Shown here piece by piece: positions 26,065-54,689 of a stretch of 64,000 nucleotides of DNA. Each line of letters starts with the position of its first letter. Within the stretch, counting starts at the first letter, position 1. Source of the stretch: Mobula hypostoma (Eukaryota). The DNA is taken from positions 34,846,001 to 34,910,000 of the forward strand of contig NC_086108.1 in the NCBI RefSeq assembly GCF_963921235.1, in the 5' to 3' direction. The notes beneath the pieces were generated by a model. The model was given only the letters and a program-made list of their open reading frames with translations, ran no database searches and was not told where the DNA came from. Position numbers and translations under genes: made by a program.

Positions 26065-26229
26065 CTCCGAGATGACAGCCCAAGCATCCTGACCGCCTCC
26101 CCAAAGATGCTGCTGCCTTCAGCTGGCCAGCTGCCCTCAGGTGCCCCGCTCTCGGTTCACCACCAGATCCAACTTCTCCAGCAACAGTTACAACAGCAGC
26201 AGCAGCAGAGCCAGGTCGCCATAGCCCAG
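26065..26229 (+). CDS. NOS1AP: NOS1AP/CAPON internal coding exon (equivalent to human exon 8), 165 nt, phase 0-0
   Basis: Pyrimidine tract and ttgcAG acceptor (26063-64), CAG|GTAAGC donor at 26230. Translates LRDDSPSILTASPKMLLPSAGQLPSGAPLSVHHQIQLLQQQLQQQQQQSQVAIAQ, matching the NOS1AP motif LTASPxMLLPS...PLSxHHQxQLLQQ...QVAxAQ. Confidence 0.95.
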
Positions 26230-26362
26230 GTAAGCAGGAGAGTCAGAGAGTTATGTGGCCCAGGTAAGCAGGAGAGTCGGAGAGCTATGTAGCTCAGGTA
26301 AGCAGGACAGCAGGAGAGTTATGTGGTCCAGGTAAACAGGAGAGCCGGAAAGCTACGTAGCT
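26227..26362 (+). repeat. Tandem repeat, 4 copies of 34 bp, each carrying a CAG|GTAA splice donor
   Basis: Unit caggtaagcaggagagtcagagagttatgtggcc starts at 26227, 26261, 26295 and 26329. Confidence 0.95.
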
Positions 26363-27337
26363 ATGCACAAGGAGCTGCCAGATCCACCTCTCTGCTGCAG
26401 TAACTTAATGGTCATTTGAAGGGGAGGGAATATGCAAGTACTAGACGACACTGAGGCTTACTTGCTCAGAGAGGGGAAATCGTGGCATTGGTTTGAAGGG
26501 CGTAAAGGCCCCTTTCTGTGCTATGATCTGAGTGCTTTGATTAGAAAGGGGCTAGATATCACAGACTGAATTTCCAGCGTTGCTTAGAAATACTGCATGG
26601 CTTGATAGCACCTCAGATCAGACAACTGCAGTTCTGTATGCTAGGACTGCAAATGTAAAGGTTCTGCTGAGAGAAATACGGAGGCCAAACAACAGTAAGC
26701 CGCAAATTCTCACAATGCTTCCTTCTTACATTATGTAATATGAAAGATGTGGATGTAAGCCAGCCTTGAGAATGCTGTTAATTAATTATCTTACTTTTGT
26801 TTCACTTATGCACGCATCCTTCAGCCAAGATGTTTAATCCCCTACTGTTCAAAAATAATGTGCTCTGGGATAGATTTTATATGAAAAGCATAGTGGAGCC
26901 AGCATGCCAGACATAAATCCCATCCTTGGACAAGCATGGTGATGGCAGTTGGTGGGCCACATTCACTTGGACACTATTTACATACAATTTCTTTTCGGAT
27001 GTGACAATTGAACCTTCCAAGCAGTGAAACCTGGATGGTGCCTGTGCACGTGGTGAGAGAGGCTTTCCTTGTGTCACGCCTGGTTTCTTAACCAATCATT
27101 TTAAATCTGCAGGTCTTGAACCTCCCCTAATAGAAGCAGTTTCTCTTTATTCGTTGTCTCTCAGCACTTGTTGGTTTAAAACCTTCTCAGCTTTAAGAGC
27201 AATTTCAGCTCCTGCTGCCAATCCACGCAATTAAAGTCTCATTACCAGATCTGTTCTATTAAACTCTTCCTCTGCCCTGTCTTCGTCTTCACATTCTTCC
27301 TGTGGCGATGTGACAAAATTAAGTGTCAAATAGTCAG

Positions 27338-27665
27338 GCGGCAGACTGGCACAGTTGGTAGAGCTGCTTCCTCCCAGTTTCAGCAAGCCAGGTTCAACTG
27401 TGACCTCTGGTGCTGGCTGCGTGGAGTTTGCACCTTCTCCCTGGGACCGTGTTTCCTTCAAGTGTTCCTGTTTTCCCAGCCACATGTGGTTTGCTAGGTC
27501 AATAAGCCACTGTAATTGTGTGTGTGTGTGTAGTCGTGGAATCCCACGGGAGTTGTTGAGAAGATAGAGAGAATAATGGGAAATTAATGCGGGATAAATG
27601 TGTGCTTAATGTTGGTATGGACTTCGTAAGTAAGGGACCTGTTTCTGTGATGTATGACCCTATGA
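27338..27665 (+). mobile_element. V-SINE (HE1-like)
   Basis: Box A-like tggcacagttggt, box B-like ggttcaactgtgacc, V-domain gtggagtttgcaccttctccc, CR1-type tail gggacctgtttctgtgatgtatgaccctatga. Confidence 0.65.
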
Positions 27666-28059
27666 TTTCCCCACTTCTGGGAATCCATTTTAAAGGCCAG
27701 GAAGCATTTTTTAATAACTTTTTTGGCCTATCTTGCCATCTTCAAAGGTTAATATATGTATAACCCAATTCTCTCTGTTCCTGCACCCATTTGTATGATA
27801 CTGCCTTTCATAATATACTGTTTTCCCAGTCTTCCTCCTGAAATACTTCACTTTGCACCTGCAGTAAACTTCACCCATTCCACCAATCTGTCATTAAACA
27901 CCAAAGCCCTGGAAGTGACCCTTGGGAAACAATCATTAAATGGTTACTCCAGACTCATAAATTATTCCTAACTTCCTTTTGTATATTGTGGCTCAGAATA
28001 GTTAATTTTGCACAGTGCCAGTAGATCATGTTTGAGCACAGTATACCCTTATTTCTACT

Positions 28060-30935
28060 TGAAACTGTGTTCTATGACGGAAACGTGGCTCCAGGATACC
28101 AACCCTGATGCGGCCATTCAGCTAGAGCTGGGGTTCCAACCCGGGGTCCGTGGACTCCTTGCTTCATGGTATTGGTCCATGGCATAAAAAAGGTCGGGAA
28201 CCCCTGTTCTCGACCCTGCAACCTCTGGCAAGATACACGGAGGAAGTTTGTGCATCTATGTTAATAAGAACTGGTGTGTGAACGCTTCAGTCGTGATGAC
28301 CTACTGTTGGCCTCTGGGTGAGTTTTTAACAGTGAAGTATAGGCCTTTCTATTTACCGAGAGGGTTCACGGTCATTGTGATTGTTGCTGTATACATTCCC
28401 CGCAACCACGCCCCCCCCCCCACCCCCGTGCTAATGCTGCGGAAACAATGCTCGAGCTCTACAGTGCCTCCAGTGACCTCCGAACCACACACCACGACAG
28501 GCTCTTTATTGCTGCTGACAAATTCAACCGTGCTAACTTCAAAACAGTCCTGCCTAAATTCTACCAGCATGTTGACCTTGGTACCAGAGGTGAGAAGACA
28601 TTAGACCTGGTTTATACCAATATCCATGGTGGATACAAAGCTGCTCCTTCGTCCACCTTGGATATTCTGACCATTTATCTGTTCTGCTAATTCCAGCATA
28701 CTGACTACCGATTAAATGAGTCAAATCAGTTCAAAGGGAGATAAAGACTTGGCCAGGTAGATCAACCTCACCAATGCGGTACTGTTTAGAAGTGGAATGT
28801 GTTCAGGGAGGTGGCTACCTATAACTATCACTTTTAATATCAATGAATATGTGGGATCTGTGACTGGCCACATAGAGAATTGCACTGAGGACAAATCAGA
28901 AGCTATGGCTGACAGCAGAGGTTGGGACACGGCTCAGAGGCTGGGAAGCTGCCATCAGGAAGGCAAAACAAAATTATTCATATAGAATATACTTATACTT
29001 TATTGTCGCCAAACAATTGGTACTAGAACATACAATCATCGCAGCGATATTTGATTCTGTGCTTCCCACTCCCTGGATTACAAATATTAAATATTAAAAA
29101 TAGTTAAAATTAGTAAATATTAAAAATTTAAATTAAACATCATAAATAGAAAATAGAAAAATGGGAAGTAAGGTTTCTGTGGCACTGCAAACACACAGCA
29201 CATTTGGCAGGGCCTTCAGACTGTAACAGACTACAAGTCCACCCTGCGTGTCAATGACAGTGATGCCTCCTTCCTGATGGGCCAAATGTCTTTCATGCAT
29301 GATTTGATACACGGAATGATATACCTGCGGGAAGGGTCACCCCCCACCCCAACAAGGAGCCCGCACTCTGTCTGGCCACAGCAGATCTATAGAAGACCCT
29401 AGCCAGAGTCAAGCACGTCAGGCTGCAGCGCCTGAGAGATTGTGCAGCCCAGTTAACTGAGGTTTTAACAGACATCTTCACCATCTCTCTGGAACAGTCC
29501 ACTGTCCCCAAGACAGCCACCATCATCCAGGTGCCTAAGAGGGTGGCAGTATCCTGCCTCAACTACTGTCCAGTGGCACTGAGGTCAACAATAATGAAGT
29601 GCTTTGAGAAACTGGTTATGGATTGCATTAAACGCCATTTTCCTGCTACATTGGATCTGTTGGAGTTCACTTATCACTCAAAACGGTCCACTGATAATGC
29701 CACAGCATCTGCACTCCACTGCATCATGTCCCACCTGTAAAATGGTGCCTCACACGGCAGGGTGCCCTTTATTGACTTCAGCTCAGCGTTTAATACAATC
29801 ATCCCTTAGAAGTTGGTGGGTAAACTGCCCTCACTGGATCTCAATGCTTCTCTGCAGCAGGCTCTTGGACGTCTTGACAGAAAGACCACAAACGGTCAAT
29901 GTTGGTAGCAACATCTCCAGCTCCATTACGCCAAGCACCAGCACTTCCCAGGGCTCCGTGCTCAGCCCACAGCTGTTCACACTGCTGATTCGTGACTGCA
30001 CTACTAGAGCCAGTTCAAACCGAATCGTCAGGTTTGCTGATGTCACAACAGTGGCTGGCCTCATCAACAATGATGTCGAGACGGTGGATAGAGAGGAGAT
30101 GAAGCAGCTGGTAGAATGCTGCCAGCACAACAACTTGAGTCTCAACATGGACAAGACCAAGGAGATGTTTCTGGACTTTAGGAACATGCAGGCTGACGAT
30201 TCCTCGCTGCACAAAAACGGCTTCTCCATGGAGAGAGTTAAGAGCATCAGATTCCTTGGGGGAGGGTACGATCTACCTGGTCCCTCAACACCACCTCTTT
30301 GGCTCAGAAAGCAAAGCAGTGTTTCCACTTCCTGAGGTAACTGAGCCACAAATTCCCACAATTTTAACCAATTTTTACAGCAGCATTATTGAGAGGGTCC
30401 TGACCAGCTGCATCACCATCTTGTATGGGAATTATAAGGCAGCTGACCGCAAGTCCTTACAAGGGATTGTGATTTAGGCTAGGATTAAACGGGGGGATTG
30501 CTGGGCAGCACAGCTGAAGGGCTGGAAGGGTAAATTCCGTGCTGTATCTCAAAAATTAAATATTTATCAGGAACACTGCGTATGCAGGGCCTTTAGCATT
30601 GTCAACGATCCCTCACATCCATCCGATAATCTCTGTGACCCCCTACCATCAGGCAGGAGGTATTGTAGCATTAGAACAGAAACTGTTAGGATGGGAAACA
30701 GCTTCTTCCCCAGGCTGTAAGACTACTCAACTCCCTGCCACCACCCAGGTCTCATCACATATGAAGTGCCAGCACTGTTCACTGTTCATTGTTTAACTTG
30801 TGTCATAGATGCTCCTTATTATTTGTTAAGTTAGTTGTGGTAGTATAACCTTACCTGTTGTGTGTGAGTTACTTGTACTGTGTTGTACACGCTGGCCTGA
30901 AGGAACATATATATGGTTGACTGATATTAAATTTA
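28060..30935 (+). mobile_element. Rex1/Babar LINE spanning most of the EN-RT ORF, degenerate, with small nested insertions
   Basis: EN (MTETWL; LCIYVNKNWC; RPFYLPRGFT; AVYIP), RT (LNYCPVALRSTIMKCFEKLV; QGSVLSPQLFTL; RFADVTTV; LSLNMDKTKEM). Insertions at about 28128-28205 (hAT-like MITE), 28981-29173 and 30470-30560. Confidence 0.85.
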
Positions 30936-31449
30936 TTTCATTGTAAACGAGACAGAAATGCTAATTTAACCCCGATCTGGAACTGTGCAACAGAAGTGGA
31001 GTTTCTCGTTTGGTTGGAAAAATGTCACCCCTGTGTCCCTTTAGTCCTCCTAGATCTGAAGCACATCTCCTCCTAGATGTGCTTCAGATATTAATGTCCA
31101 TAGTACTGGATTGAGCCAGGCTTTTGGAGATACCTGAATTTACCCTTCCAGTTCTTTGAGCTGACTCTCTCACTAATCATTACATCTCTACTGTCTTTGA
31201 CATTTCCTTCTTTTGCCTCAATATTTTTATCATCCACCAGATGTCCCACTATAAAAACCTGGAAAACACTCTGAATATTCATTAATTTATATCATTTAAT
31301 ACATTTTGACACAATGATTTTTCCTTACATCATTTATAATACCATTTAATGTGATATCTGCATGTCTACAATAGCATGACTGGAATTGGATGTAAGTTGT
31401 CAGATTTATTTTTTTCCATTCCAATGGATGGCATTTAGATCCAGTGCCG

Positions 31450-32700
31450 TGGGAATGCAGCACTGTCAGAGATGTTGTCTTTCAGGTTACGTCCACACTA
31501 GACCAGATAAGTCCGTAACTGAAGCTTCATCTCTTCGTTTTGACCCTCTGTCCACACTGAAATGGCGTTTTCCTCCCCTGAAAACGAAGCTTTTCTAAAA
31601 CAGCCTCCAGAGTGTTTAAATCTGAAAACGCCGGTTGGCCGTTGCAGTGTGTACGAGGTAACCGGCTAATTTAAAACCGCTGTCATGACGTGCCGGAACA
31701 AATGGTGGCTGTGCGGCATTTCATTGTTTTCCTGAACACAACCTCCAACACCACAACAATATCTGACAATAGATGTGTAACAGCCTAATGTAACATTGTA
31801 TGGAAATACAAGATAACACTGATGCAGACATGTTTTATACATTTAACAATGTGCTTTATTAATGTATTGCTTGTGCAAACATTCAATAGATGCAATTGCC
31901 ACTTTTGCCCAGTAATTTGTTTTATTGCACATGTTAAATACAGCAAAGTAATGCACAAAGACATGGCAAAAGTAAAGGCAAACAAATGAGGTAACAGCAA
32001 ATTTCACTTCTGCCCAGTAACAAGCCTTATTACATTTAGTTGTAGCTGTCGTCCCTTTCATCGGTGAAGAGACTATGGCTGTAGGAAATGTTTCTGGACA
32101 AACGCACACCAAGACTTTCATTTGGCAATTTCCTTTTAAGTTTTTCTAGTCTGTAACTGGACAAATATGCACTGAGTATACCGTTTCCTCATGACTTGTT
32201 TTCTGTGTGACCTGCGCGTGCCCAGTAGGAGGAGATTCACCCAAATATCCGTTTTAATGTGGACGGAGGAGTTTTCAAAAACGCCTGGTGTGGACACCTA
32301 TCGTTTTTACACTAAACCGGCGTTTTCAAAATTATCCGGTCTAGTGTGGACGTAGCCTCAGATTAGCTGTTAACCCTGTCTCCCATCCCAGGTACTTATA
32401 AAGCACCCGTGGCACAGTTTTCAAGGAGAACAGTTGAATTCTATCCCATGACCTTGCCACAACATACTTATCCCTAACTAACACCATTAAAAGCAGAATT
32501 TTGGGCTCTTTTATATGTGCAAATGGCCCAATAAAAACAGATTGTCAAAACTAACTCAGTGCATGTTTGGGATCTCTCTGTGTGCAAATGCTAGCTGTGT
32601 TTGTGATAACGTGGCGGTCATTATATATCAACGCTTCACTGAGGAACACTCTGGGGAATTCCTGGGGCGATAAAATATTTTAATGTATACTCTGCTTTTG
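31450..32700 (+). mobile_element. DeuSINE (SacSINE1-like), split by a Harbinger MITE
   Basis: gcagcactgtcagagatgttgtctttca | gattagctgttaacc...cccgtggcacagttttcaaggagaacag...tatccctaactaacacc...tgtttgggatctctctgtgtgcaaatgctagctg matches the Deu-domain pattern once the insert is removed. Confidence 0.65.
31485..32357. mobile_element. Non-autonomous PIF/Harbinger DNA transposon, 873 bp
   Basis: TIRs GGTTACGTCCACACTAGACC(A)GATAA / TTATCCGGTCTAGTGTGGACGTAGCC; 3-bp TSD TCA at 31482-84 and 32358-60; subterminal gtccacac/gtgtggac repeats. Confidence 0.88.
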
Positions 32701-33669
32701 TTGAAACCTGCAGATTGGATTGCTTTTAAAATGTATTGCCAATCTTCCACTATTTATTCCATGAAGTATATGCTTGTGTGGCACAGGAGTTGTAAATACT
32801 GACATTGTATCTGTTTTTTGAAGCACAATTCAGCTTTTGGGCATCCTTTATGTTCAGCTTGCTGCTGTAGTACTTCTAGAACTTTAGGCCAGCTCAGTTT
32901 ATATCCACCAGTAAAACTGGTCTTTTTACCTTGAGGTCTGAGCGTTGTCTCATTGGGCGGCTGGTGTGAGTCCAGACCACACTGTTACCCTGACGTCTGC
33001 CAGTCAACAGCTGGAAGCACTCCAACCAGTGATGGTGTCTGTTGTGACATGAATAAAGTCACCAGAGAGACACTGAAGCAAGTGAATATAGAAGTGCTTT
33101 ATTCAACAAGATCTAGTATCAGGCATTATCTTGAGACTCTCTTGGAGAAAGGTCTTCTAACTCAATATTACATGACATTTTAACAGCAGGACAATTCTAT
33201 AGTTACAATGTATTTTCAACACTTCCTTTGAATTACATAGAGTTTTCATACACCTCCTTCTTCACACCCACACACCAGACACCCAAAATGAGTGTTAATC
33301 GGCATTGTCTGGTTTGAAATCAACTCCAGGAAAACCATTGTTCAGGGCTGCATTTTAAAATCAATCTACAATCCACATTCATGTCTGAAGATTGGTTGCT
33401 GCTGAAATTAAAATGTGCTGTATCCAGAATATGCCCCACTAGTATCGCCAAGGGCATCAATCACACTTTGGAGCTCTGTACCCTTCTTCTTAGGCAGTCG
33501 TTTGGTTCAGAGTAGTGGGTGTTACTTGGGTATGATTTCTTTTAATGTAGGGTGGCTATTGCAAACCAGCATGCTTGACATATTGAGGACTCAGTCCAAC
33601 GTCCCAAGATGAGTGAAAACTAGGCTCTGCACAAACTTATATGACTTGTGTTTAGTCTGTCTTAGAGAC

Positions 33670-33812
33670 AACACATCTGTGCACATGTACTGTCACACAT
33701 ATGACACACATACATATAAATATATATGCACCATTGTGCATTTTTGAGTACACACATATATTTACACATGTATACACATCCATATATGTATACATACACA
33801 TATATTTACACC
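33670..33812. repeat. Low-complexity (TA/CA)-rich simple repeat
   Basis: Reiterated acacatatatttacaca/tatacatac units. Confidence 0.7.
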
Positions 33813-34129
33813 ACCTTCTTCATTGTCTTATCACTCTTTTAAATCTGTTTCATTTAGAGGAAATGTAGAAGGAATTTTCTTTTTTGTTATATAATTTTTA
33901 TTGAATTTTCAAAAAGAATACATGAAAAAAAAGAATCTACCCTCCCCCCTCCCCTTAACCCTCCCCCCCCCATATATAGTCCTACCTAAAAAAGAAGAAA
34001 AAGAAAAACAGAAAGAAAAAAAAAAACGCCTGGTTTTTGGAAGGTTTCCACATGCTCCATCGGATTCAAAATAAATTTGGTATAATTATTCGTTACTTTC
34101 CCCAAGTGACCAAAGTCTTTATCGGAGCC

Positions 34130-37100
34130 CTATCCTATCTTTTGTAAATAAGGGCACCAAATATTCAAAAATGTTACATATTTATCTCTTAAATTATAAG
34201 TAATTTTTTCAAGTGGAATAGAACTAGCCATTTCATTATTCCAACGATCCATACTTAAATATGAATCAGATTTCCAAGTAACTGCTATAGTCTTCTTAGC
34301 TACTGCCAATGCAATTTTTATAAATTCTTTCTGATATTTATTCAATTTAAGTTTCGGTTTTATCCCTTCAATATCACCTAATAAAAATAATACAGGGTTA
34401 TGTGGAAGTTGAGTTGCAGTAATTTGTTCCAATAAGATTCTTAAATTTATCCAAAAAGGTTGAATTTTAAAACAAGACCAAGTAGAATGTAAAAAAGTAC
34501 CAATTTCTTGATTACACCGAAAACATTTATCAGAAAAATTTGTATTTAATCTATTTATTTTTTGCGGTGTAATATATAATTGATGTAAAAAATTATATTG
34601 TACTAATCTAAGTCAAACATTTATTGTATTTGTCATACTGTCAAGACAGAATCTTGACCAATTTGTTTCATCAATATTAATATTCAAATCTGTTTCCCAT
34701 TTTTGCTTTGACTTATGGGTTCCTTGTTTAATTGTCTGTTCTTGAATCAAATTATACATACAAGAAATAAATTTTTTAATTTTCCCTTTTTGAATTAAAA
34801 TTTCAATGTCATTAGGTTTTGGCAAAAACATTGTTTGACCCAGCTTACCTTTTAAGTAAGCCCTTAATTGAAAGTAACAGAAGAAAGTATTATTAGATAT
34901 TTTATATTTATCCTTTAATTGTTCAAATGACATCAATATACCTCGTTCAAAACAGTCTCCTATAAATTTAATCCCTTTTTGGTACCAATTATATAAAAGT
35001 TGATTGTCCATTGTAAAAGGAATAAGTCTGTTTTGGAACAAAGGTCTCTTTGCTAATAGAGATTTCTGTGTTTCATTATCAACATTTATCTTATTCCATA
35101 GATCAATCAAATGTGTTAATATAGGAGATTCTTTCTTTTCCCGTATCAATTTAGATTCCCATTTATATATAAACTCTTCAGGTCTATTTTCTCCTATCTT
35201 GTCTAGTTCTATTTGAATCCATGCTGGTTTTCGGTCATCGAAGAAAGATGCAATAAATCTACGTTGATTTGCTTTATAATAGTTTTTAAAGTTTGGAAGT
35301 TGTAACCCTCCTAACCCAAATTTACATGTCAATTTTTCCAGTGATATTCTTGACATTTTACCTTTCCAAAGAAATTTTCTCACACATTTATTTAACTCTT
35401 GAAAAAATTTCTGTGGCAATTGTATTGGTAATGTTTGAAACAGATACTGTAATCTAGGAAATATATTCATTTTTACAACATTGACTCTACCTACTAATGT
35501 TATTGGTAATATCATCCATTTGTCAAGATCTTCTTGAATTTTTTTCAATAGTGGTAAATAATTAAATTTATATAAATTCTTTAGATCATTATCAAGTCTT
35601 ATACCTAAATATTTTATACCATTCACCAGCCATCTAAATTGGGTTACTAATCGACATTGACTATAGTCTCCTTTAGTAAGAGGTAAAATTTCACTTTTAT
35701 CCCAATTTATTTTGTAACCTGATACCTTCCCATATTCATCCAATCTAGAAGATAATTTATGTAACGAACATTGTGGATTTGTTAAATAGATCAAAACATA
35801 ATCGGCAAAAAGATTAATTTTATATTCCTCCTGATTAACTCTAAAACCCATAATATCTGGATCAATTCTAATTAGTTCTGCTAATGGCTCTATCGCCAAT
35901 ACAAATAAAGCAGGTGATAGTGGACAACCTTGTCTCGTTGACCTTTTTAACTGGAATGGTGTTGAAATTTGAGAGTTTGTCACCACTTTAGCTTTAGGGT
36001 TAGAATTTAAAGTTTTAATCCAATTTATAAAAGATGTTCCTAACCCATATTTTTCTAGTACTTCAAATAAAAAATCCCATTCTAATCTATCAAATGCTTT
36101 TTCTGCATCCAAAGCTACTACTATACTCTTCTCATCCCTTTTTTGTGCCAAATGAATTATACTGAGTAGCCGAGTTACATTATCTGCCAATTGTCTATTT
36201 TTAATAAATCCTGTTTGATCCATATGTATTAATTTTGGTAAATATTTAGATAATCTATTCGATAAAATTTTTGCTATTATTTTATAATCCGTATTCAATA
36301 AAGAAATAGGCCTGTATGATGCTGGTTTCATAGGATCTCTGTCTTTTTTTGGCAGTACTATTACAATCGCTGTTGAAAAAGATTCTGGAAGTTTATGTAT
36401 TTTTTCTGCTTGACGTATTAGTTCCATAAAAAGAGGAAATAATAAATCTTTAAATTTTTTATAAAATTCAGGTGGAAAACCATCTTCTCCTGGAGATTTA
36501 TTACTTTGGAGTGATCCTAAAGCTTCTTCAACTTCTTTTAATGTAAAAGGCATATCTAAACCCTTCTGTTCTTCCAAATTCAATTTTGGAAGAGAAACTT
36601 GTGATAAAAACCTTTCTATCTCATTAACATCATTTTGGGATTCTGATTGATATAATTCAGAATAGAAATTTTTAAAAGTTTCATTTATTTCAAGAGGTTT
36701 ATAAGATATTTTATTTGCCCTTGTTCTAATTGCATTTATTGTTTTGGAAGCTTGTTCTGTTTTCAACTGCCAGGCAAGAATTTTATGTGCTCTCTCACCT
36801 AACTCATAATACCTTTGTTTAGTTCTTATAATTGCTTTTTCCGTTCTATATGTCTGAAGCGTATTGTATTGTAACTTCTTATTGACAAGCTGTTTTCGTT
36901 TTTCTTCTGACATATATCTTTGAGATTCTTTTTCTATTTTTGTAATCTCTTTTTCCAATTGATCTAGTTCTGCCATATATTCTTTCTTAATTTTAGACGT
37001 ATAACTTATTATCTGGCCCCTAAGATATGCTTTCATCGCATCCCATAATATAAATTTATCATCCACTGAATGAAAATTTGTATCCAAAAAAAATTGAATC

Positions 37101-37897
37101 TGCTTTTTCATAAAATCACAAAAATCTTGACGTTTTAATAATATTGAATTAAATCTCCATCTATAAGCCACTTCTTCCTTATCAGCCATTATTATTGTCA
37201 TTAATAAAGGGGAATGATCTGATAATATTCTTGCTTTATATTCCATATTTTTCACTCTGTGTTGAATATGCATTGATAATAGAAACAAATCTATCCTTGA
37301 GAAAGTGTTATGTCTACGGGAGTAAAACGAATAGTCTCTTTCTTTAGGATTGATTCTTCTCCATATATCAATCAGATTTAAATCCTTCATCAATGATAAA
37401 GTTAAATTTACTACCTTCGATTTTATAACAGCCTTGGTTGATCTATCTAAGACTGGGTCTAAGCAAAAATTAAAGTCTCCTCCAATTAATATTTTTTCAT
37501 GCGCATCCGCCAAATTCAGAAAAGCTTCTTGTATGAATTTTGCATCATTTTCATTTGGTGCATAAATGTTCATAAAAGTCCATAATTCAGAGAAAAGTTG
37601 ACAATGTATAATCACATATCTCCCCGCAGAATCAATTATTACATTTTGTATTCTAATTGGTAACGTTTTATTGATCAAAATTGCTACTCCCCTCGCTTTT
37701 GAATTAAATGAAGCCGCAACAACACTACCCACCCAATCTCTCTTTAGTTTCTGATGTTCTGTTTCCGTTAGGTGCGTTTCCTGTAAAAAAGCTAAATCTA
37801 TCTTCATTTTTTTAATATGTGTGAAGATTCTTTTTCTTTTCACTGGTCCATTAAGCCCATTAACATTAAAACTCAAAAAATTCAATAAATTAGTCAT
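34130..37897 (-). pseudogene. L1 ORF2 (EN-RT-CCHC) with a single in-frame TGA at 34613-34615 and FADD changed to FADY
   Basis: SFNVNGL, LQETHL, IGGDFN, SRIDL, SDHSP; LDAEKAFD, TRQGCPLSP, LFADYV. Manual translation past the stop stays open (LRLVQYNFLHQLY...CFRCNQEIGTFLHSTWSC...) into ORF 34130-34432. Confidence 0.92.
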
Positions 37898-38329
37898 TAT
37901 TCTTCACAAAGTTACTCCAATCTAAAACATTATTTATCTTCTCAACTTTCATAGTTCCTTGGGGAATCTCTTTAAACTTCACCATGTTGCTATGTGTCTC
38001 CCTCCCAACCTTCCAGGCAGAAAGAAAAAAGAAGAAAGAAAAAGAACAAAAAAAGAAAAAACAAAATACCCCCCCACTAATGTTGTGAACGAAAGGATAT
38101 ACAACACTACCCCCCTCCATTTTGCGGGTCATGGCAAAAGCCACGCTTGCACACATGACTAGCGTAGCAATCGATCAGTGCTTCTTCCAGCTCCCCCGCA
38201 ACAAAAAAAACATTATATATATATAGACAAAATTAGTATTACTATTCCCAACTAATATTCCTCCAGTTTTAACCTTTCTTACCCCCCCTCGTATAATTAA
38301 TAATATATTTATACATTCATCCAGCTTCA

Positions 38330-39493
38330 AAAATCTATCAAGTCCATTCTCTAACCCAATCCTCATCTTCAATCTATCTCGCTCTCCTGGGTTTGTTCTT
38401 GTGTCTGGTGAGTTTTCAGAGAATCTCACACAAACTGCTCTGCTTTCTGATAATCATCAAAAAATCTTTTTTCTCCACCAGACAAAAAAATCTTCAAAGT
38501 TGCAGGATAATGCAGTGTAAATTGATAACCATGCTCTCATAGGGTATTTTTCACTGGATTAAATTTCTTCCTTCTCTTCAAAAGTTCGTAACTTATATCA
38601 GGATAGAAAAAAACTTTGTTCTCTCCAATTATCAATGGCCCTTTTCTATCTTTGGCAGCTCGAGTAGCTGCCTGTAGAATCCTTTCCTTGTCTTGAAATC
38701 TTAAGAATTTTATTAAAATTGATCGTGGATATTGGTCATCGTTTGGTTTTGGTCTTAAAGCTCTATGTGCCCGCTCAATTTCAATTGATCGAACCCCTCT
38801 TCCATTTGCAAAACATCCAGGATCCATCTTTGAAAAAATTCTATTGGTTTATCTCCCTCCATACCTTCTTTAAGACCAACAATTTTAATATTATTACGTC
38901 TACTAAAATTTTCCAACATGTCCACTTTCTCCAAGAGTCGGTTTCTTTCCGAATTCCAGACAAGCAAATCATTTTCTGTTTTTTCCACTCTGTCATTCAT
39001 ATGCCCCATTGCTCTTTCCATCTTCTTATCCATTTTGTCCTGTCTTGCCATAACTTTATCATAGCACATCTTCGTATCTCTAAGTTCTTCTCTTACTTTT
39101 CTTAATTCAGCCGTTAATTGCAATATAGCTTCTGGAAGTAAAGGAGATGATATCACTATCATCTCTTTTACTTCCAATCGCTTCCAGTTCTTCCTCCTCT
39201 TCTTCATCTATGTTCTCTGCGGAATCCGATTCTGACTCTGAGTCATTTTCAATTGCAGTGGTTGTCGGTTCTTGTAGTTTGTGTTGTGTCGGTTTGCGCA
39301 TGCGCTCTTCTTTGCGCTTGCGCATTACCGGCGTCTTCTTCGAAGAAACCGTTGCCACCGCCGTTGCTCCCTGTTCTACCGAAGGAGATCCAACCTGAGT
39401 CCAAGGCTCCATCGTTGCAGTAGGCCCTTTTTTCTTCCCATCTCGCGACTGCTTCGCAACAGCAGACTTCTTTTGTTGCGGTTTAGGAGGCAT
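38330..39493 (-). pseudogene. L1 ORF1, broken by frameshifts and a stop
   Basis: Pieces MPPKPQQKK..., LENFSRRNNIKIVGLKEG (coiled-coil/RRM junction), IERAHRAL...PRSILIKFLRFQDKE...FFYPDIS. The 3' boundary is approximate. Confidence 0.85.
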
Positions 39494-39652
39494 ATCGTAA
39501 AGTAGTCTTACAAAGTTTATAAATAGTTTTCAGAAAATATTTACTAACTTTGTTTTGTTTAAACGGTACTTTACGGACTTGTTGCGGGACAGCTGGATTT
39601 ACACGTCTCAATCCCATGTCATCACGTGACATCCCCCTAGAAGGGATTTTCT

Positions 39653-42600
39653 AAAATGGTTCTGGGGATGGGGAAGTTCATATACGATAGGCTGGAGAAG
39701 CTCATGTTGCTGTCTATGAAGCAGAGAAGGATGCAAGAAGATCTGGTAGACCGATTTAAGATCATGAAAGGTGTAGACTGAGGGAAATGGAGGGCAGGGA
39801 GCTGAGAGGAGCAGGTGACCAAGGAGAGGGTTAGAGAAACTGACTGAACAGGAGGCCGTGAGTGAGGAGAGAGTTCACATAGTGGTAAATGAAGGGGGGA
39901 ACTGAGAGAGAGAGGATGATAGGCAGCTGGGTGTGAGTTGCTGAAGGCCCTAGATATTTCCATGGACAGGAGTCTTATAGTTTCCTGATCACATAGTATC
40001 CATCACAACCTGAGGAACAAAAGTGTAGATTTTTCCTTTTTCCATGCAGTAATGAACTGAATACTTATAAACGTTGCCAATTTCCAATTGAACTATTATA
40101 GCTTCTCAATGCAATGCAAAATACACAGTGGCTAATCCCCCAGGGTGCTAGCCGGCACCTTACAAACCCATGACTTCTATCATCAAAATGAACAAATGGG
40201 ATACCACCACCTGCAGATTCCCTTCCAAGATTTACACCAACTCAACTTAAACACATATGTTCCAGTCCTGCAATGTCATTGAATCTAAATCCGTAAACTA
40301 TAAATCTAACAGTTCTGTAGGAGTTATTTTACCAGAAGGACTGCTACATTTCAAGATCAAGGCTCACCAACCCCTTCTCAAGAGCAGTAATAGATGCTGG
40401 CCTTATGGACAATCCAAAGTGAATTAAAAAACACTCAGCTTAGCAGTCTTCAGCATACTGATGAGACAACATAAATCATGCGGTTCATATTGATGAGATT
40501 TCTAATTTCTAGAGGGATATAGCCCTGCAATACTGCTGACTTTACCTTTGCTATGATTCAAGTAGATAGATTCTTACTTTGTAGTGATCCATGGCACGGC
40601 ATTGCAAATAGTCCCAATGGACCAAGGTTAATTTTGATTTATTTCACTTCTGCTCCTTTGTCTTCACAGCCAATCAACTTTATTAATTATGTGCAAAGGA
40701 CCTCTTGCACACTTCCAATATCTGTATACCTGAGAGGGTAGCACCCCACTGCAACATCGCATGCATTCCAAGATAAACGGAGAAACGTTGGGAAGACATT
40801 CAGAATCAGGTTTAATATCACTGACTTGCTGCACATTGTGAAATTTGTTGTTTTGTGGCAGCGGTGCGTTGTAATAGTGACATTGTATCGGAGTTTGCTG
40901 CCGATACCTACACAGATTGCAATAAGTTGTAATCTAGACATAAAAAGTATGCAAAGGGAATTAAACAAGTTAAGAGAGTGGGCAAAATTATGGTAGATAG
41001 AGGTTAAGTGTGAGGCTGTCTACTTTGGCAAGAAGAGTGGGTGTAAAAGGCTGTTGGTGAAGTAAAGTGAGACTGATTATGGCTGGAGGGCTGAAAGATC
41101 AGAGTGCCCTTGTTTAACACAGGTATTTCACATGTAGGTACAGTAAAGGGGAAAAACTTCAAAGGGCGAGAAGTACAAAAGTTGGAGAATACTTTGCTGG
41201 GACCACAGCTGGAGTATCACATGTGGTTTTAGTCTCTTTATTGTAGGAAGGGAATTCTTGCCGTGGATGCCATGCAGTGAAGGTATATTCCATTGGTGGA
41301 GGGGGGTACATTATGAACAAATGTTAAGCAGATCAGGCCCATAAGATCTGGAGTTCCAAACAGGACAAAGAGATCTGATTGAGATGTTTAAGGATTTGAG
41401 CAGTTTCACAAGGTAGATGATAGAAGGGTGTTGGATTAAACAATGGACCATGGTCCAGGATCAGGGATCAATCACTTAAGATGACAAAAACATTATTTCA
41501 GAGTGTCATGTACCATTGGAAGTCTGTACTCCTGAGTTGAGGAGACAAAGTCACAGAACTTATTAATGCCTGAGATGGACAGAGTTTTGGACTACAGGGA
41601 AATCAATTACGGTGTCAATGGTAGGAAAGTGGGAGGCCAGGTGTCAAATCAGCTCTAAATTACTGGAAGTCAAAGCAGATTCAGGGAACTATGGCCTATT
41701 CCTACTTATGTTTAGTTCATTTTTTCTATCACTGAGTCTCTCCAGAACTGTTGGTAGTTTTCATAAGAAAAATGAGAAAATGCGATATAAACCGGGGGTA
41801 TAATTCAAAAATGATACAAGAAAAATCTGGGGGTCAATGTGCATAGAATATGTAAAGCAGCAGGACAAGTTGAGAAACAAATTTTTTAGAGTATATAGAG
41901 TTCTGAGCTTGTGAAAAACTGTTTAAAATCATGGTGGTGGATAAAGTGAAGCTATTCCCATTATAGAAGTTAGGAGTTCATAGTGTGGTTAACAGGACGC
42001 TGGTGAAGGTGCACTTGAAGTATTGTCTTCAGCTTTAGTTGCTCTACTATAGGAAAGGTGTTATTAAACTGGAAAAGGTGCAGAAGAGATTTAGAAGGAT
42101 GCTGCCAGGACTTGAGGGACTGAGTTATAGAGAGAGCTTGGACAGGCAAGAACACTGTTCCTTGGACTTTGGGACTCTGAGAGGTGATCCTGTAGAGGTT
42201 TATAAAATCATGTGGGACTTAGCCAGCATGAGTGCACTTAGACCTTTTCCTGTGGTTAGAGAGTCAGAACAAGAGGGTATAGGTTTAAAGTGAGGTTTTA
42301 AATAACAATTTCTAGTACACAGTTGACAGGTACATGGAATGGAAAAGTTTTGAAAGTTTTGGGTCATGCCAAATGCTACCAAATGGGACTAGCCTAGATG
42401 GGCATCTTTGTCAGCACGGACCAGTTGGGCCGAATGGCCTGTTTTCCTGTTTTATGGTTCTATTGAAAAGACTGAGATTGAGGGGATTTAGAATGAAGGT
42501 GATTAGCAAAAGGTTAAAAAAAATGATGTGACAAAATATTTTCACTCAGTGGGGTGGAGAGTTTAGGGCTGGAATACACTGACATAGGCAGTGTCAGAGG

Positions 42601-43265
42601 CAGAAATTAACAAGGAATACCAATAAATATCTGAAAGGGAAGAAATTGCAGAGCAAGGAAGAGAGAGTGAATGAGTGGAAGTGGCTGCATTGCCCATACA
42701 GAGAAATATGCAGGTGGAATAGCCTCCTCTGTGGAACCAAGAGAAGGTCAGAGGCTGAAATTTCCTACAGAAAGGGCGACATCCCACGGCATTTCCACCA
42801 TCCACAGGGCACTAGTCAAAAGCAATGCTGTCCACATCTGCAGGTGAGCACAGCTCCAACATCCATGAACCATCAAGTACAAATGCTCCTGCATGTTGCA
42901 CCATCCTACGCAGGCACTCCCCCACCCACAGCACACAGTGGCTGCAAGTTGTACTGTCCACAAAACCCAGCACAGTTTCTCCATTAAACTTTCCAAGCAC
43001 GCGACATCTACCTTCAAGAAATACATGGGCAGCAGGTGAAGGGACTCCACAACCTGCACGTCGCCGTCTGATCCTGACCTGGAAGAGGATCAGCTTTTCC
43101 TTCATCCTCAGTGAGTCCAAATCCTGGAATGCTTTACCCAACAGGACCGATGGAGTGCCTTCACCAGAGGTACAGCAGTGGTTCAAAAGTGTCTCACCAC
43201 CAATTTCTAGGGTCATTAACGAAGGGCAATAAATACTACCCTTGCCTGTGATGGCCATATTCCAG
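39653..43265 (+). mobile_element. Cluster of old CR1-type fragments (about 39653-39965, 40880-41710, 41830-42700) and another LINE 3' end (about 42780-43265)
   Basis: For example ORF 42039-42293 YRKGVIKLEKVQKRFRRMLPGLEGLSYRESLDR; tails such as gggccgaatggcctgttttcctg. Unique sequence is interspersed. Confidence 0.7.
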
Positions 43266-45327
43266 AAACATTCTAAATGAAGACAAAGGTTGTGGACTGT
43301 GGGTGCATTGTTGGAATTTTACCCCAGAATCTGTTGTGACCTTCTCAATAAATGGTCGTAAATTTAAGGGCACTGTGTGAGGGAGTTTCCTTATCCATGC
43401 AAGACTCAGACCCAGGTATTCATCAGGAGACTCTTTATTTATGTGACATGGGGAGTTGTCCCTCCAGAGAGCAATGTCTCTGCTTAAGATCAGTACACAC
43501 GCTCCCTTTATGGGTAATTCTAACAGGAATGGTTTGTTCAACATTTCCATATTTGGTATTGATCTGAGCAAGCTAGAAGGTAAAACACTTAAATCACATC
43601 GCCTCGTGGTGTACAACTGTAGGCTAGAGGGCAACACCATTTAATCTTATGTCTACACGTGGATTTTCTGTTGATCCAGGCATTAAACAATACAGACACA
43701 AAGTCTAGTCTCAGAAAGGTATTTATCCAACCTGGCTAGCCAAAATCCTCCACAGTCTGAGAAGTGAGCATCCAGAGGTTAATGAAATGGCAGTCAGCAT
43801 TGGTAAATTAACGAAGTATTTTTTGCAGATCAAGTAGCGACTTTATTGTTTTTTGGCATTAACGTTAATCTGCCACTGGTGAGTGGATCAATATTTCAAT
43901 GCACTGTACCTTTTGAGAGGTCTAATTGTACTGAAGCCAGGATTATAGAATACACAGCAGTAGCCATAAGTAACATCAGCTTTCATTTACATTGAGACTT
44001 TAATTTTATAACACATCTCTCAGAGGTTTTAACAAATTTTTAAAAAGCATGCTTTCTGTCTTAGTTATATGTTCATTATTGGAAAACTGCGCTTTACTTT
44101 TAATCCTCTAAATGAAGTATTCTGTTTTCTGATCTTTCAGTTTCTATCTGAAAATACTTCTATTCTTCAGGGATACAAAACATAATATCACTGACGACTT
44201 CTCAATCATTATTAGTGCACTCTAAGAAGGATTGACGTGTTCATACCACAAACTATGTTACTGATAGAGGCACCAAGAAAGCTCTGATCAGTCTTTACAG
44301 TACTAGAAATTGAAGTGAGAAAATCTGAATGGTTTTAGAAATAATCTGACTGAATTATTTAAAGCTTTGAAAGAGCTCAGTAATATAATCCCTTTCTGGT
44401 GAATGGGCACAGAACAACATTGTGAAGCAGTTTTTAATCATGCTTTGGTTCTTGATACATTGCTTTAACCAGATTCCACAGTCTAGCAATGATACTGCCT
44501 TCAATAAAGGATGTTTTGCTGATAGTCCCACTCTCTGATTACCAATGCTGGCAAGGGCACAACAGTATCCCACAGACATTCAAATAGGATTGACACAGAG
44601 AGGCTATTTCCATGAGGAGCAGCATCTTAGGATTAGAGCTAGGCTGATTAGAAAAGAAGTAGAGATGTCACTCAAGCCGTAATAGACTTCCCCAGCAAAA
44701 GCTGAATGGTGGCTATGTTCAAGCTTTCAAGGTGGTCATTCGTAGCCTTTGACTGGGTAAGTGAGCTACAGACTAACCAAGACTGATACTTTGGTAGGGT
44801 CGTATAAGGACTGGTGAACTTCAGTTCCTGAGGAAGAATAGGGTGAAGTCTGAACTGAGTGTACGAGGGAAACTCACGCTGGATCACAGTTATTGGGCAC
44901 AATTATGAGAAGTAAGTATGTAAAATTCAAAATTCAGGGTTAGTTAATATCTGCAAACCTTGTAATCCCCGCATCTGTGATTGGACTCAGTCAGGGTGGC
45001 TCCTGTATAACTGTATTGGAGTTGGTTCCTGGTATGATGATCACTGGTGATGTTACATACCTTCTCACCACCATCATTTGCACACTGGGTGTATTTGTTG
45101 AACGACAATGAAGTGTGCAGGAAAACCGATCCTACTTAATCATCTTAAAATTCTGGATTGAGACCTCTGCTGGGGGACTTCCGGTAGCGCTCATGGAGTG
45201 AAGTCGCGTTCTTGACTCGCTCCATTACCTCTGAGTTTTTTTTCTTCTGATCAGCTATATTTTAAGTAACCATTAAGGCATCAACTTTTACAATACTTTG
45301 AATTAAGTTGGGCTCTTCGATAACTGG

Positions 45328-46115
45328 ATGCGTTTAAGATCTGCTATGTCTAAGAATGGGAAAAACGGGAAGGATGGCAAACCTCCGGTTAAACCGAAAG
45401 GTACCGATTTCCCTCCGACTGAACCACCAGTGACTTTGAAAGCTATATCGGAGCTAATTCGGGAGGAAATTTCAACTAGTTTCCAGAAAATTGCCGATTC
45501 AATTGAGAAGATACAAATATCTATTACGGAACATCGGTCGGCTATATCTGATCTTCAAAAATCCACGCAACAAAGTGAGCTCAAGATGGAGAAAATTGAA
45601 GAAACAATTAATGTAATGAAGAAGAAACTCGACTTTCTGACCTTTAAAAACTCTGACTTAGAATCTAGAATGCGACGGCAGAATCTTCGAATGATTGGGG
45701 TGCGTGAAGCTGTTGAATCCGATAACCCTATGAAGTATTTTTCTCAACTTTTAAAAGATGCATTTCCTACTGTATTTCCTGACCAACCACCATTATTGGA
45801 TCGTGTTCACAGAGTTCCATCATACTCGCCTAGGTCAGATAAACCTCGACATGTCATTTTACGTTTTCATTACTTTCAAGACAAGGAGAAACTGTTTCGA
45901 TTCGTTCGATCTAAGGGTTTCATTGATTTTCTGGATCTTAAATTCCGATTCGTGGAAGATTTCAGTAAACCAATCCGGGATCAACAGATTTAAGACCAGC
46001 GCTTCTTTACCCTGCACGTCTAAGGATTCGTACGCCGGATGGAGCCCTCCGTTTTTTTGACTCTCCATCGGATGCCCAGAGTTATTTGGATCAATTTTCA
46101 CCATCGACATTTTAA
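45328..46115 (+). pseudogene. L1 ORF1 with a frameshift (probable short deletion) near the C-terminus
   Basis: 221-aa ORF (DLESRMRRQNLRMIGVRE; LDRVHRV; PRHVILRFHYFQDKE; FVEDFS) stops at 45993, while the expected C-terminal domain FRPALLYPARLRIRTPDG... continues in another frame. Confidence 0.85.
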
Positions 46116-46824
46116 TTGTAATTTTTTAACTATTTCCGCTGATCGGAGGCTGTGTATTTGTTGGTCTTAATTTTTTTTTGCCTTATATGGGCAGAAAAGT
46201 TTATTTTTGATTACTTAATGTGGTTGCTAAACTTTCTTTTTAACTGCGTCATTTCTTTCTTTTTCCCAGGGGATTCTGGGTGGTTACTTCCTTATTGTCA
46301 TCTTACGTATTTCCTTTGTGGCCTTAAATTTTGTAGTTTTTTTAAAATCTATTTTGTTTTGTAGGTTTTTATAACTAGGTTAATAATCTTATTTCTTTTT
46401 TGTTGTTCTGTTTATTCATGGGTCTGATGTTTATTGCGTTTTTTTTTCATATATTTTCTGGCTTTTATTTTGGTATGTGTTTATTTTAATTGAGTTATCT
46501 TTTTTTATTCTTTTACTGTTTTATAATCAGCTGATCTTTTTTATATTTACACTTTTTTAGGGAGCGTATACCGGAAGTCATTGGGGTAGTTTTAGTGCTT
46601 GCTTCTTTCGGGCTGGTCTGCGTTAGACTTAGCTTTCGGGACATGGGGTGGGGGGTGGTGGGAGGGGCTTCACTTTTTAGTTTCTTTCTTCTTGGGCTAT
46701 ATACATTATTGAAGTATGGGTTGCGTTCTTCTTCCCGGTATCTCTTGTATGTTCTGTTCCCTTTCCGGGTTCGTGGGTCGAGCCTATCGTCAATCCTCCT
46801 TGTTGTGGGTTGACCTTAGGGTTT

Positions 46825-49800
46825 ATGGAGTCTATTATTAATTTTGTCTCCTGGAATACTAATGGTCTTAATCATCCTATTAAAAGGAAAAAAGTTTTTA
46901 AAGTGTTCCGGAGACTTAAAGCACAAATTTTATTTTTACAAGAGACCCATGTGCGGAGGGGGGACAGACTACGTTTTTTTAAATTCTGGAAGGGCCAACA
47001 GTTTCATTCGAACTCCAATGCTAAGATTCGAGGCGTCTCTATTTTTATAGACTCCTCGGTTACTTTTATACAACATGATATTATTTCTGATCCGAATGGT
47101 AGATTTCTATTGGTTAGTGGTTTACTATTTAATAAAAAAGTAGTTTTGGTTAAAGTTTATGCTCCTAATATGGATTGTCCGGAATTTTATAAATCATTAT
47201 TTAATCAGTTTCCGAATTTGAATGAGTTTTCATTGATCTGGGGCGGAGATCTTAATACCTGTTTGTCTCCAGCTTTGGACCGTTCGGCTCCTTTACGGAC
47301 CTTACCTAATAAATCTGCAACTTTGATTAACTCATTTCTTTCTGATTCTGGGTCGACGGACATTTGGTGCTTTTTGCATCCTCAGGAAAAAGATTTTTCT
47401 TTTTTTTCACATGTTCATCATTCCTATTCAAGAATTGATTATTCCTTTATTGATTCTCGTCTTATTCCCTTAGTGATTAAATGTGATTATGGTTCTATAA
47501 CCATTTCGGATCATGCTCCACTTAAGCTTTCTATTAAAATTCTGGCCAATATACAAAATAATAGACAATGGCGTTTTAATTCGCTGTTGCTTCAGGACTC
47601 GGACTTTGTTAACTTTATGAATGAACAGATTGATCTTTTTTTTACAATTAACTATACAGAGGATATTTCTGTTAACATTCTTTGGGATACTTTTAAAGCT
47701 TATATTCGTGGTCAGATTATCTCGTATTCTGCTGCTTTAAGGAAGAAGCAGAAGCAGCAGGAGTTGGTAATTGTGGACAAGATTAAGGAAATTGATAAGA
47801 AATATGTTATAGCTCCTTCTGAGGAGTTATATAAACAAAGAACTGAACTTCAAATGGAATACAGTTTATTACTCTCGTCCTCGATTGTAAACCAATTAAA
47901 GAAAACAAGAAGTGAATTTTATGTACACAGTGACAAAATTGGTAAACTGTTGGCTAATCAATTGAAGTCTAATTATGCTAAATCTCAAATTAATCAGATT
48001 TATAACCAAAATGATCGACTAATATTTGATCATGTGGGGATTAATCAAACCTTCTGTGATTTTTACTCTTCCTTATATCAATCAGAGTCTCCTCGAGATT
48101 CTAAATATATGAATGATTTTTTAGATAATTTAGATTTCCCTGAGATTTCACAGGATATGGCTTCTATGTTAGATACTCCTATTACCATGGATGAGATTAA
48201 GAATGTTATTTTCTCTATGAATTTAGGGAAAGCTCCTGGCCCTGATGGGTTTACTGTAGAATTTTATAAATGTTTTGCTCCTTCATTAATCCCTTGGCTT
48301 TGTAGGGTTTTTGAGGCTTCATCGAAACTTGGTAAACTTCCTGAATCTTTTAATAGAGCGTCAATTTCTTTAATATTAAAGAAGGATAAAGATCCTGCTC
48401 AATGTACATCTTATAGACCAATATCTTTATTAAATGTTGATTCTAAAGTTTTTTCTAAGTTATTAGCAAATAGATTAGAAAAAGTACTTCCCTCTATTAT
48501 TTCGGAAGACCAAATGGGTTTTATTAAAGGTCGTTACTCTTTTTATAATATTCGTACACTGTTAAATATCGTTTATACTCCCTCACAAAATGTTCCTGAG
48601 TGTGTTATCTCTTTAGATGCCGAGAAAGCTTTTGATAGAGTAGAATGGCCTTATTTATTTAAGGTGCTTGAAAGGTTTAATTTCAGTTTGAAATTTATAT
48701 CCTGGATTAAACTCTTATATTATTCTCCTGTGGCCTCGGTCCGTACTAACTCTTTAAGTTCACCTTTTTTCTCTCTTTTTCGAGGTACTCGACAAGGCTG
48801 TCCTCTTAGTCCCTTATTATTTGATATTGCATTAGAACCTCTTGCAATTGCCATTCGGGAATCTCCAAATATTACTGGGATAACTCGGGGCTTAAAGTCC
48901 CATAAATTATCACTCTATGCTGATGATTTACTTTTATATATTTCTAATCCTCAAAAATCCATCCCGGCTGTTTTAGAGTTATTAGCACAATTTGGTCTTT
49001 TTTCAGGTTATAAATTAAATCTTAGTAAGAGTGAACTCTTTCCGATTAATAAACAACTTCCCTTATATTATAAATTTCCATTTAAATTGATTAATAATTA
49101 TTTTTCATATCTTGGGATTAAAATTACTTGTAAATACAAAGATTTATTTAAGACTAACTTTTTACCATTAATAGACCATATTACTCAACTTTCATCTAAA
49201 TGGCTTCCTTTATATTTAACTTTGATTGGTCGTATTAATGCAGTTAAGATGTTTTTTTTGCCAAAATTTTTATATATATTTCAGGCGTTACCAATCTTTG
49301 TTCCAAAATCTTTTTTTGACAAAGTTGACTCTAAAATTTCTTCATTTATTTGGCAGAATAAAAAACCGAGACTGGGTAAAATACATTTACAGAAAGCTAA
49401 GAGAGGTGGAGGCTTAGCATTACCTAACTTTAGATTTTATTATTGGGCAATTAATATTCGACATATGAAATTCTGGTTACTGGACCAGGATATACTATCC
49501 ATTCCTAAATGGGTAGCATTGGAATTACAATCTGTTCAGGGTTTTACACTTGGCTCTATTTTAGGTTCCTCTCTTCCTTTTGATTGGAAACGCCTTAAAC
49601 AGGTGTCTAACCCGATAGTTAAATATACCTTGCGTATTTGGTTTCAATTCAGAAAATTTTTTGATCTTAATCAATTTGGGTTAGCGATTCCTATTTTAGG
49701 TAACATATTTTTTCCTCCCTCTTTTACGGATCGTGCTTTTCAAATTTGGAAGACTAAGGATATTTCACGGTTTTTGGATTTGTTTTTAGATGGTTCCCTT

Positions 49801-50601: not shown

Positions 50602-51903
50602 TATATACCCTTCTTGTTTTTTTCACTGTTTTTAATGGAGGTCGGGATTGAGGACGTGATTTTAAGTTTAACTCTGTTTGGTTTCAAGTTAGCCCATTGC
50701 TTTGCTTTGCTTTTAGTTAGTTGCACGGTGGGTTTTTTTGGGTTTTTTTTTTCTTTTTCTCCATTGATATATATATAAAATGAGTATACTATTATGTTAC
50801 CTTGGTATGTTATGTTTAAATTACATTGTTTGTAGTATTTTTTTTGTATTAATATCTTCTGTAATTTTATTATATTCTAACAATGTATTAGTGTCTATAT
50901 GGCTTACTTTTTTGTATACTTATTTAATAAAAAGATTTAAAAAGAAAGAAAGAAACCTCTGCTGTAGAATTAAATGTGAATTAGGTTGCAGCTACAACAT
51001 GAAGGCTTGGCTCTGCAGCTGCATCTGACTCAGGCAAGCTTCATCTGACTTCTGGGACACACTCAATTTGGAACAAAGTAATAAGCAAAGAATTAGCTCA
51101 AATTTCTAATTGGATTAACTGTGTTCAATTCTGAAGGATTAATGATTTTTTTTATTTGTTTAAAGATTGACTTGGCTCACCACAGTGTTAGGAGTCCTGC
51201 CAAAATAGCTACAGTGCGGCAAAAATATCTGCAATAACTCCCTGCTGCTATTTATCCAAATAGTCCAGCAATGATCTATTCTGTCTATGGTATTATTGCA
51301 TGCAGTTGGGTCTTGGGGTTTTGATCTAATTGATGCTTAAATTTAAAGTGAAGGAAATAAGTGACAGTTACCATGGAAAAGCACATCAAACATTGCATTT
51401 GCATTTGAATATTTTGTGTGGCTGACCTTTTATTCATGGCTGCTTTCATTTTCTCACTGCTACTTAGAGCATTTCTTCTTCCATGCCGTTGCTGATCCCA
51501 AGGACACTTTGATCACTTGGACGCTGGTGCTCTCCGGTGCATTCGCAGCACTCCAGTCTATCACCTCAGTAAACCCAAGTGGAGCACGCCAGCCCACATG
51601 GGGGGAAATATTGTTACTCATTCCCTTTCTCACTTCGTCCCGTGAGTTAGAGCTCTGTAGAACTCTGCTTCAAGCTCACTTGGAGTATTGTGTTTATTTC
51701 TAGTTGCCTCGCTGTGGGAAGGATAGGACGATAAGACATAGGAGCAGAATTAGGCCATTCAGCCCATCAAGTCTGCTCCGCCATTTCATCATGGCTGATC
51801 CCGGATCCCATTCGACCCCATACACCTGTCCTTTCACCATATCCCATGATGCTCCGACCAATCAACTTTGAATAAACCCATGGACTTGAGTGAAGAAGCT
51901 TTA

Positions 51904-54668: not shown

Positions 54669-54689
54669 TATAGACATAGACATGATATG

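Follow-up and report, generated by a model that had tools for sequence, protein, structure and literature searches.

A 34-bp minisatellite reiterates the exon 8 splice donor of NOS1AP in Mobula hypostoma

In human F7, a VNTR in intron 7 repeats a 37-bp unit, which includes four exonic bases, 5–9 times. Only the first donor is used, and this is unchanged with 1–12 units; the pseudo-donors are active only once upstream donors have been destroyed, and perfect-consensus downstream sites took 70–90% of splicing from the first site, which is weak (CV 74) (Borensztajn et al. 2006, PMC1557585). The same report describes use of the first donor only at the LMNB2 (100 bp) and PDGF (81 bp) minisatellites and, for CBS intron 13 (15–20 units) and IFI6/6-16 intron 2 (25 pseudo-sites), the use of two pseudo-donors besides the first (PMC1557585); pseudo-donor use in IFI6 is also described in PMC4526556. 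The 'mirages' of the amphioxus Adh3 and globin genes are unstable in length and leave splicing undisturbed (Ebner et al. 2010, PMC3087553). Spacing affects donor choice in a globin system: the downstream site gains once the two lie more than about 30 nt apart and accounts for about 100% of use from 45 nt upward (Hodson et al. 2012, PMC3413131).

We analysed a 64,000-nucleotide stretch of M. hypostoma DNA (the window), in which a 34-bp minisatellite at 26224-26365 begins 6 nt inside exon 8 of NOS1AP (Table 1). The comparisons that follow are with the known systems as the cited sections of the reports describe them. As in F7, unit 1 is formed by the last exonic bases and the donor, pseudo-donors follow at similar spacing, and copy number varies (PMC1557585). 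The ray array differs from F7 in its unit and number (34 bp and four units, against 37 bp and 5–9 units), in its donors, which are near consensus by sequence whereas the F7 site is weak, in its very long flanking introns (>26 kb and 34 kb), and in the variation observed, which is between species, not within one. In CBS, IFI6, LMNB2 and PDGF, too, a minisatellite beginning where the exon ends reiterates the donor, although their arrays are much longer. The pseudo-donors of IFI6 give rise to protein isoforms, whereas every extra ray donor leads to a premature stop; CBS and IFI6 are nevertheless precedents for the use of nearby pseudo-donors. The amphioxus 'mirages' are likewise minisatellite-like, length-unstable tandem copies of an exon–intron boundary; many units keep their splice signals intact, and the cited sections report no splicing effect. 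The present case, in contrast, is one short donor-side array in a vertebrate gene. In the models of Hodson et al. (PMC3413131), as here, identical strong tandem donors compete for one acceptor, but those models are artificial, with short introns and two sites of which the downstream one is favoured, whereas the ray exon is natural and internal, and its full-length product depends on the upstream site. The array is a new locus within an already known and usually harmless kind of repeat. No paper on NOS1AP in Mobula was found in the literature searched, and the locus seems undescribed there.

Table 1. Coordinates of NOS1AP features and of the repeat array in the window
Feature	Position	Strand	Remarks
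NOS1AP exon 8 (human numbering)	26065..26229	+	165 nt, phase 0; tblastn; acceptor 85% pyrimidines
Left microhomology TAGC	26222..26225	+	second copy at the array's right end, 26358-26361
Unit 1, authentic donor (GT 26230)	26224..26257	+	starts with the last 6 nt of exon 8
Unit 2, pseudo-donor 2 (GT 26264)	26258..26291	+	31/34 identical to unit 1
Unit 3, pseudo-donor 3 (GT 26298)	26292..26325	+	68 nt added on use, in-frame TAG among them
Unit 4 and array end, weaker pseudo-donor 4 (GT 26332)	26326..26365	+	U1 duplex -8.3
In-frame TAG	26290..26292	+	met on reading past donors 1 and 2
Intron 8	26230..60654	+	34,425 nt
NOS1AP exon 9	60655..60820	+	166 nt, penultimate; followed by GT at 60821
Exon 10 (canonical last exon), coding part to stop	62599..62999	+	tblastn 132/133 to NOS1AP protein P0003

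A sequence-only reading of the window had taken the exon/intron junction itself as the repeat unit, in four copies. The sequence and TRF agree: TRF reported 26224-26344 with a period of 34, 3.6 copies, 84% matches and a score of 177, and alternatively a period of 68 with 2.1 copies across 26222-26362. The extent first given, 26227..26362, located the repeat correctly but fell short of its actual span, 26224 to about 26365. Donors 1–3 each read CAG/GTAAGCAGGA and are identical from -3 to +10, beyond the -3..+6 first noted; the fourth, CAG/GTAAAC as that reading had it, has lost the G at +5. Each unit is mostly intronic (6 exonic and 28 intronic nt), and any two units match at 25–31 of 34 positions, that is, they differ at 3–9. 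All three plus-strand matches to CAGGTAAG in the 64-kb window fall inside the array and the best unit-like match elsewhere in the window, on either strand, is 20/34, so that the array is not a product of chance. The locus thus consists of head-to-tail units of a size fitting a minisatellite. Unit 1 crosses the authentic boundary, starting 6 nt 5′ of the gene-model donor, and that donor is reiterated in two identical copies and one weakened copy.

Donors 1–3 are near consensus and predicted to be strong, with a predicted U1 duplex of -11.0 kcal/mol compared with -8.3 for donor 4. The predicted accessibilities of donors 1–4 (0.45, 0.36, 0.32 and 0.65) are too close to account for a choice among them. 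The RNA fold of the array region was no better than that of shuffled sequences (z=-0.23), and an Rfam search of the window gave no match. Among the columns of the unit, 1 of 9 donor columns is variable against 10 of 25 others, a difference that is not significant (p=0.21).

The gene was identified by its exons. The 55 residues encoded by exon 8 are all identical to those of four M. hypostoma RefSeq isoforms, and exon 10 departs from P0003 only at the codon interrupted by the intron. For exon 9, identity to NOS1AP (CAPON) of two Mobula species is 100%, which indicates that the full-length protein is under constraint. The assignment to NOS1AP and the acceptor at 60655 proposed from sequence therefore stand. 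Human NOS1AP exon 9 is 166 bp and penultimate (PMC12660744, in the section cited); the exon at 60655 has the same length and position, so the exon-8 label is right as well. No upstream exon was found by tblastn in the first 26 kb of the window, and exon 8 is thus flanked by two very long introns (>26 kb and 34 kb). Residues 32-168 of P0003 form the PTB domain; their coding sequence lies upstream of the window. Exon 9 is present both in the canonical form and in a long form fused to a C1orf226-like part (PF15429), so both forms require donor 1.

Several other features of the region were recorded. The codon directly before unit 1 (26221-26223) is ATA, Ile, in place of the Val found in nearly all vertebrate NOS1AP proteins seen; Ile is common only to the M. 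hypostoma isoforms, and batoid proteins of other species that contain the exon have Val. Together with the exon 8 match, this places the window in M. hypostoma or a very close relative. Intron 8 holds an L1-like LINE at 45307-50598 (+), sense to the gene, that contains an ORF1-like frame (PF02994). Its other frame is uninterrupted over 1306 codons and gave matches to endonuclease, reverse transcriptase and zf-RVT; the copy is possibly young. A second LINE, at about 34133-39207 (-), has a 1096-codon endonuclease/reverse transcriptase frame with its stop near 34615 and more open frames on both sides, and GC is low (0.29) over 34-38 kb. Broken open frames at 3-461 and 3003-5322 (-) resemble pieces of LINE reverse transcriptase, presumably of the CR1 type. 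At 25916-25962, about 100 nt 5′ of the exon 8 acceptor, lie 45 nt of an interspersed repeat of very high copy number (depth 350-1050 in three relatives' runs), probably a SINE or LINE tail fragment. Other intronic tandem repeats, of 47 bp (three copies, 13460-13602) and 27 bp (three copies, 22831-22910), and a degenerate TC run of 375 nt at 17515-17889 touch no exon found.

Splicing from donor 1 to the acceptor at 60655 keeps the reading frame open, and a comparison of the frames of all four donors upheld the proposal that only donor 1 allows full-length NOS1AP. Use of donor 2 adds 34 nt and shifts the frame, as had been predicted, so that translation stops at 60684-60686. Use of donors 3 and 4 adds 68 and 102 nt respectively, in both cases taking in the TAG at 26290-26292, which translation confirmed to be in frame. 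The premature stops from donors 2–4 lie 134, 171 and 205 nt 5′ of the exon 9/10 junction. A stop more than 50–55 nt before the last junction marks a transcript for NMD; transcripts from donors 2–4 are therefore predicted NMD substrates, and their stops are placed as in an AS-NMD (poison) element.

The in-frame TAG, 20 codons into the array, had also suggested a PTB-containing protein lacking the nNOS-binding C-terminus. The stop positions count against that proposal, since the spliced forms have a junction 171-205 nt 3′ of the TAG and NMD is predicted; judged by these frames, a stable PTB-only protein from donors 2–4 is unlikely. A wider version, in which such a protein would arise either through donors 3 and 4 or through read-through into the intron with early polyadenylation, could draw on A(A/T)TAAA hexamers from 27230 onward and on a 159-nt intronic piece in run X9 (RNA guessed, same species label), where a contig of depth 2.6 is identical to 26527-26685. 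Such hexamers are common in AT-rich introns, the piece may be DNA or pre-mRNA, and the protein was absent from all of the candidate sets described below; we regard this reading as highly unlikely.

The CAG directly before each GT, together with the length of the intron, raises another alternative, in which the AG/GT junctions would be recursive splice sites, or U1 landing pads against early polyadenylation, aiding removal of the 34-kb intron. A recursive splice site has a polypyrimidine tract and an AG directly before the donor. The 20 nt upstream of the internal AGs (26263, 26297 and 26331) are 35-40% pyrimidine, compared with 85% at the three true acceptors, and recursive splicing at these AGs was rejected for want of pyrimidine tracts. 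The AGs also lie just 34-102 nt into the intron, and the relative in run X16 has no array. We give this alternative, including the landing-pad version, very little credence.

Donor 1 yields the full-length mRNA in the gene models. It makes the exon 8–exon 9 junction in each of the four M. hypostoma RefSeq isoforms seen and in 23 of 26 batoid proteins checked, a set in which one cluster is represented by 15 of its 20 members; the remaining three proteins are without exon 9. Gene models are partly homology-guided, and protein sets cannot reveal NMD isoforms. An array-derived extension was found in none of 242 proteins compared and in none of 1144 longer candidate proteins. Thirty-three candidates of near length gave five matches, all of them read-through frames of other species and none with the array-derived extension, and none of 101 representative hits aligned beyond residue 66 of the query. 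These searches are weak evidence, because NMD isoforms leave no protein. In run X9 neither exon 8 nor the array is covered by a record, some records having been filtered, and the run is neutral either way. Its word share of 0.29 was considered as a sign of extension into the array, and this was rejected because the intronic piece accounts for the share; the piece itself could stem from pre-mRNA, from carried-over DNA or from an extended exon. Runs X11-X13 have a word share of 0.16, where 0.18 is expected for the exon alone and at least 0.22 with an extension, and they were not counted as evidence.

The window was compared with 4 of 23 listed sequencing runs (X5, X9, X10 and X16), and all three DNA runs from relatives differ from it at the array. 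X5 shows 17 differences in 767 nt (about 2% divergence); a single 2266-nt contig bridges the array and has exactly 34 nt fewer, giving three donors, with units 2–4 colinear. In X16, about 6% diverged and with the Thr codon of Hemitrygon and other non-mobulid proteins, a single 650-nt contig bridges the array with 122 nt replaced by 12, leaving a single donor and 26 nt to the end of the block. X10, about 5-6% diverged, has a Ser codon as in Mobula, and its contigs break within the array. At least two back-joints were found in this run, each of 52 nt, that is, two 26-nt units; one contains a dead donor (GT to AT) and the other a GTGAGC donor. Summed depth in X10 is 93 in the array against 8-12 in the flanks, and as depth is no copy number this array is called only 'longer'. 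The array is therefore unstable in length between the lineages, with one donor in X16, three in X5, four in the window and a longer, broken array in X10, and the comparison of copy number across relatives that the sequence-only reading proposed does reveal variation. The M. hypostoma DNA runs holding the stretch represent one sample, so the variation shown is that between species, and the single-donor ancestral state is that of one outgroup run (X16).

These data also bear on whether the extra units are an assembly artefact with no counterpart in the animal, a possibility raised at the outset. Runs X1-X3, which hold all sampled words, may be the source of the window and are hence not independent. 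X5, however, is an independent relative with units 2–4 in one bridging contig, and the units differ from one another as described above; the probability of an artefact is negligible. The array is real, lineage-restricted, and turning over in copy number and unit length.

The array has also been proposed as a copy-number-variable splicing rheostat, in which regulated use of donors 2–4 would tie the level of NOS1AP to NMD with copy number as the dial. In its favour, the premature stops of all three extra donors are so placed that NMD is expected, three related lineages have retained the array, and purine-rich GGAGA words, which we take to resemble SR-protein sites, lie between the donors. Poison elements are conserved across species beyond the flanking intron. 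X16 lacks this array; in X10 its unit is 26 nt instead of 34 nt and one donor is dead. Conservation of the donor columns does not significantly exceed that of the others (p=0.21). Moreover, premature stops are met in most random exon extensions and can be expected here without selection, and no special fold was found. With the array not conserved and its donor columns no better kept than the rest, a leak would not equal regulation, and we consider a selected rheostat very improbable. If a large, regulated NMD leak were nevertheless real, a fast-mutating repeat would be tied to the dose of an nNOS adaptor.

The array was probably seeded by a microhomology of 4–5 nt. The word TAGC occurs at the end of exon 8 and again, offset by 136 nt, at the array's right end; if the ancestral codon at 26221 was the Val codon GTA, as Val in other batoids against ATA here suggests, the shared word would have been 5 nt. 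Shared words of 4–5 nt are what slippage duplications usually leave behind. A short segment comprising the final 6 nt of exon 8 and adjoining intron sequence would have been duplicated head-to-tail by slippage or unequal exchange, with the microhomology providing the joining points, and turnover would have followed. Three unit columns alternate between units 1 and 3 and units 2 and 4, and TRF also finds the period of 68; this fits a history in which one unit gave a dimer and the dimer was then doubled, which we infer for the four units. X5 would have shed one unit through the 21 nt common to units 1 and 2. The 34-nt unit appears to consist of a 26-nt ancestral stretch and an 8-nt internal block. 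Two histories fit the single outgroup: homogenisation, in Mobula, of one old array to a new unit, or two separate amplifications, of the 26-nt and of the 34-nt array, starting from one microhomology.

Taken together, the locus is probably a near-neutral, donor-spanning minisatellite of the 'mirage' kind with donor 1 dominant. Of the two alternatives in the sequence-only reading, rheostat and neutral slippage with the extra donors mostly ignored, the latter is the better supported. Donors 2–4 would be competent yet mostly silent pseudo-donors, the first donor downstream of a well-defined exon winning as in human F7, and a small leak would carry a premature stop and be removed by NMD. Such a leak would have little effect on the protein, and copy number would therefore drift. 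Two points count against a low leak: donors 1–3 are equal in predicted U1 pairing and near consensus, unlike the weak F7 site, and their spacings of 34, 68 and 102 nt exceed the threshold of about 30 nt in the globin system (PMC3413131, as given in the section cited). The splicing data used in these comparisons come from mammalian cells and not from sharks or rays.

The same two points favour a passive leak, in which donors 2 and 3 of an unselected repeat would take 10–50% of splicing; the transcripts would go to NMD and NOS1AP output would fall proportionally as copies are added, a tolerated cost and not a control device. Donors 1–3 are equally strong by prediction over their shared -3 to +10 sequence, duplicated strong donors favour the downstream site beyond about 30-45 nt (PMC3413131), and two extra donors are used in CBS and IFI6 (PMC1557585; for IFI6 also PMC4526556). 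The weakened donor 4 and the GT to AT change in X10 could reflect selection against leak. On the other hand, F7, with a spacing of 37 nt, shows no leak at 1–12 units in the sections cited (PMC1557585), and intact donors 2 and 3 have been kept across the roughly 2% divergence from X5, a point against a large cost. The searches above gave no protein with the extension, a weak point where NMD targets are concerned. A leak on this scale seems to us unlikely, though still to be reckoned with.

A stronger form, in which a large, tissue-dependent share of NOS1AP transcripts in these rays would be diverted to NMD and would set a species-specific dosage, is suggested by identical, strong donors 1–3 lying 34-68 nt apart, the range in which model substrates switch downstream. 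We think it improbable. If it were true, copy number and unit length would set the species-specific dosage of NOS1AP, and so nNOS signalling. For the near-neutral minisatellite that we favour, the value of the locus lies in a natural series at one donor, with one, three, four or more copies and 26- or 34-nt units in closely related rays. This series could test the F7 outcome, in which the first donor wins, against the globin outcome, in which the downstream donor wins, outside mammals and between very long introns.
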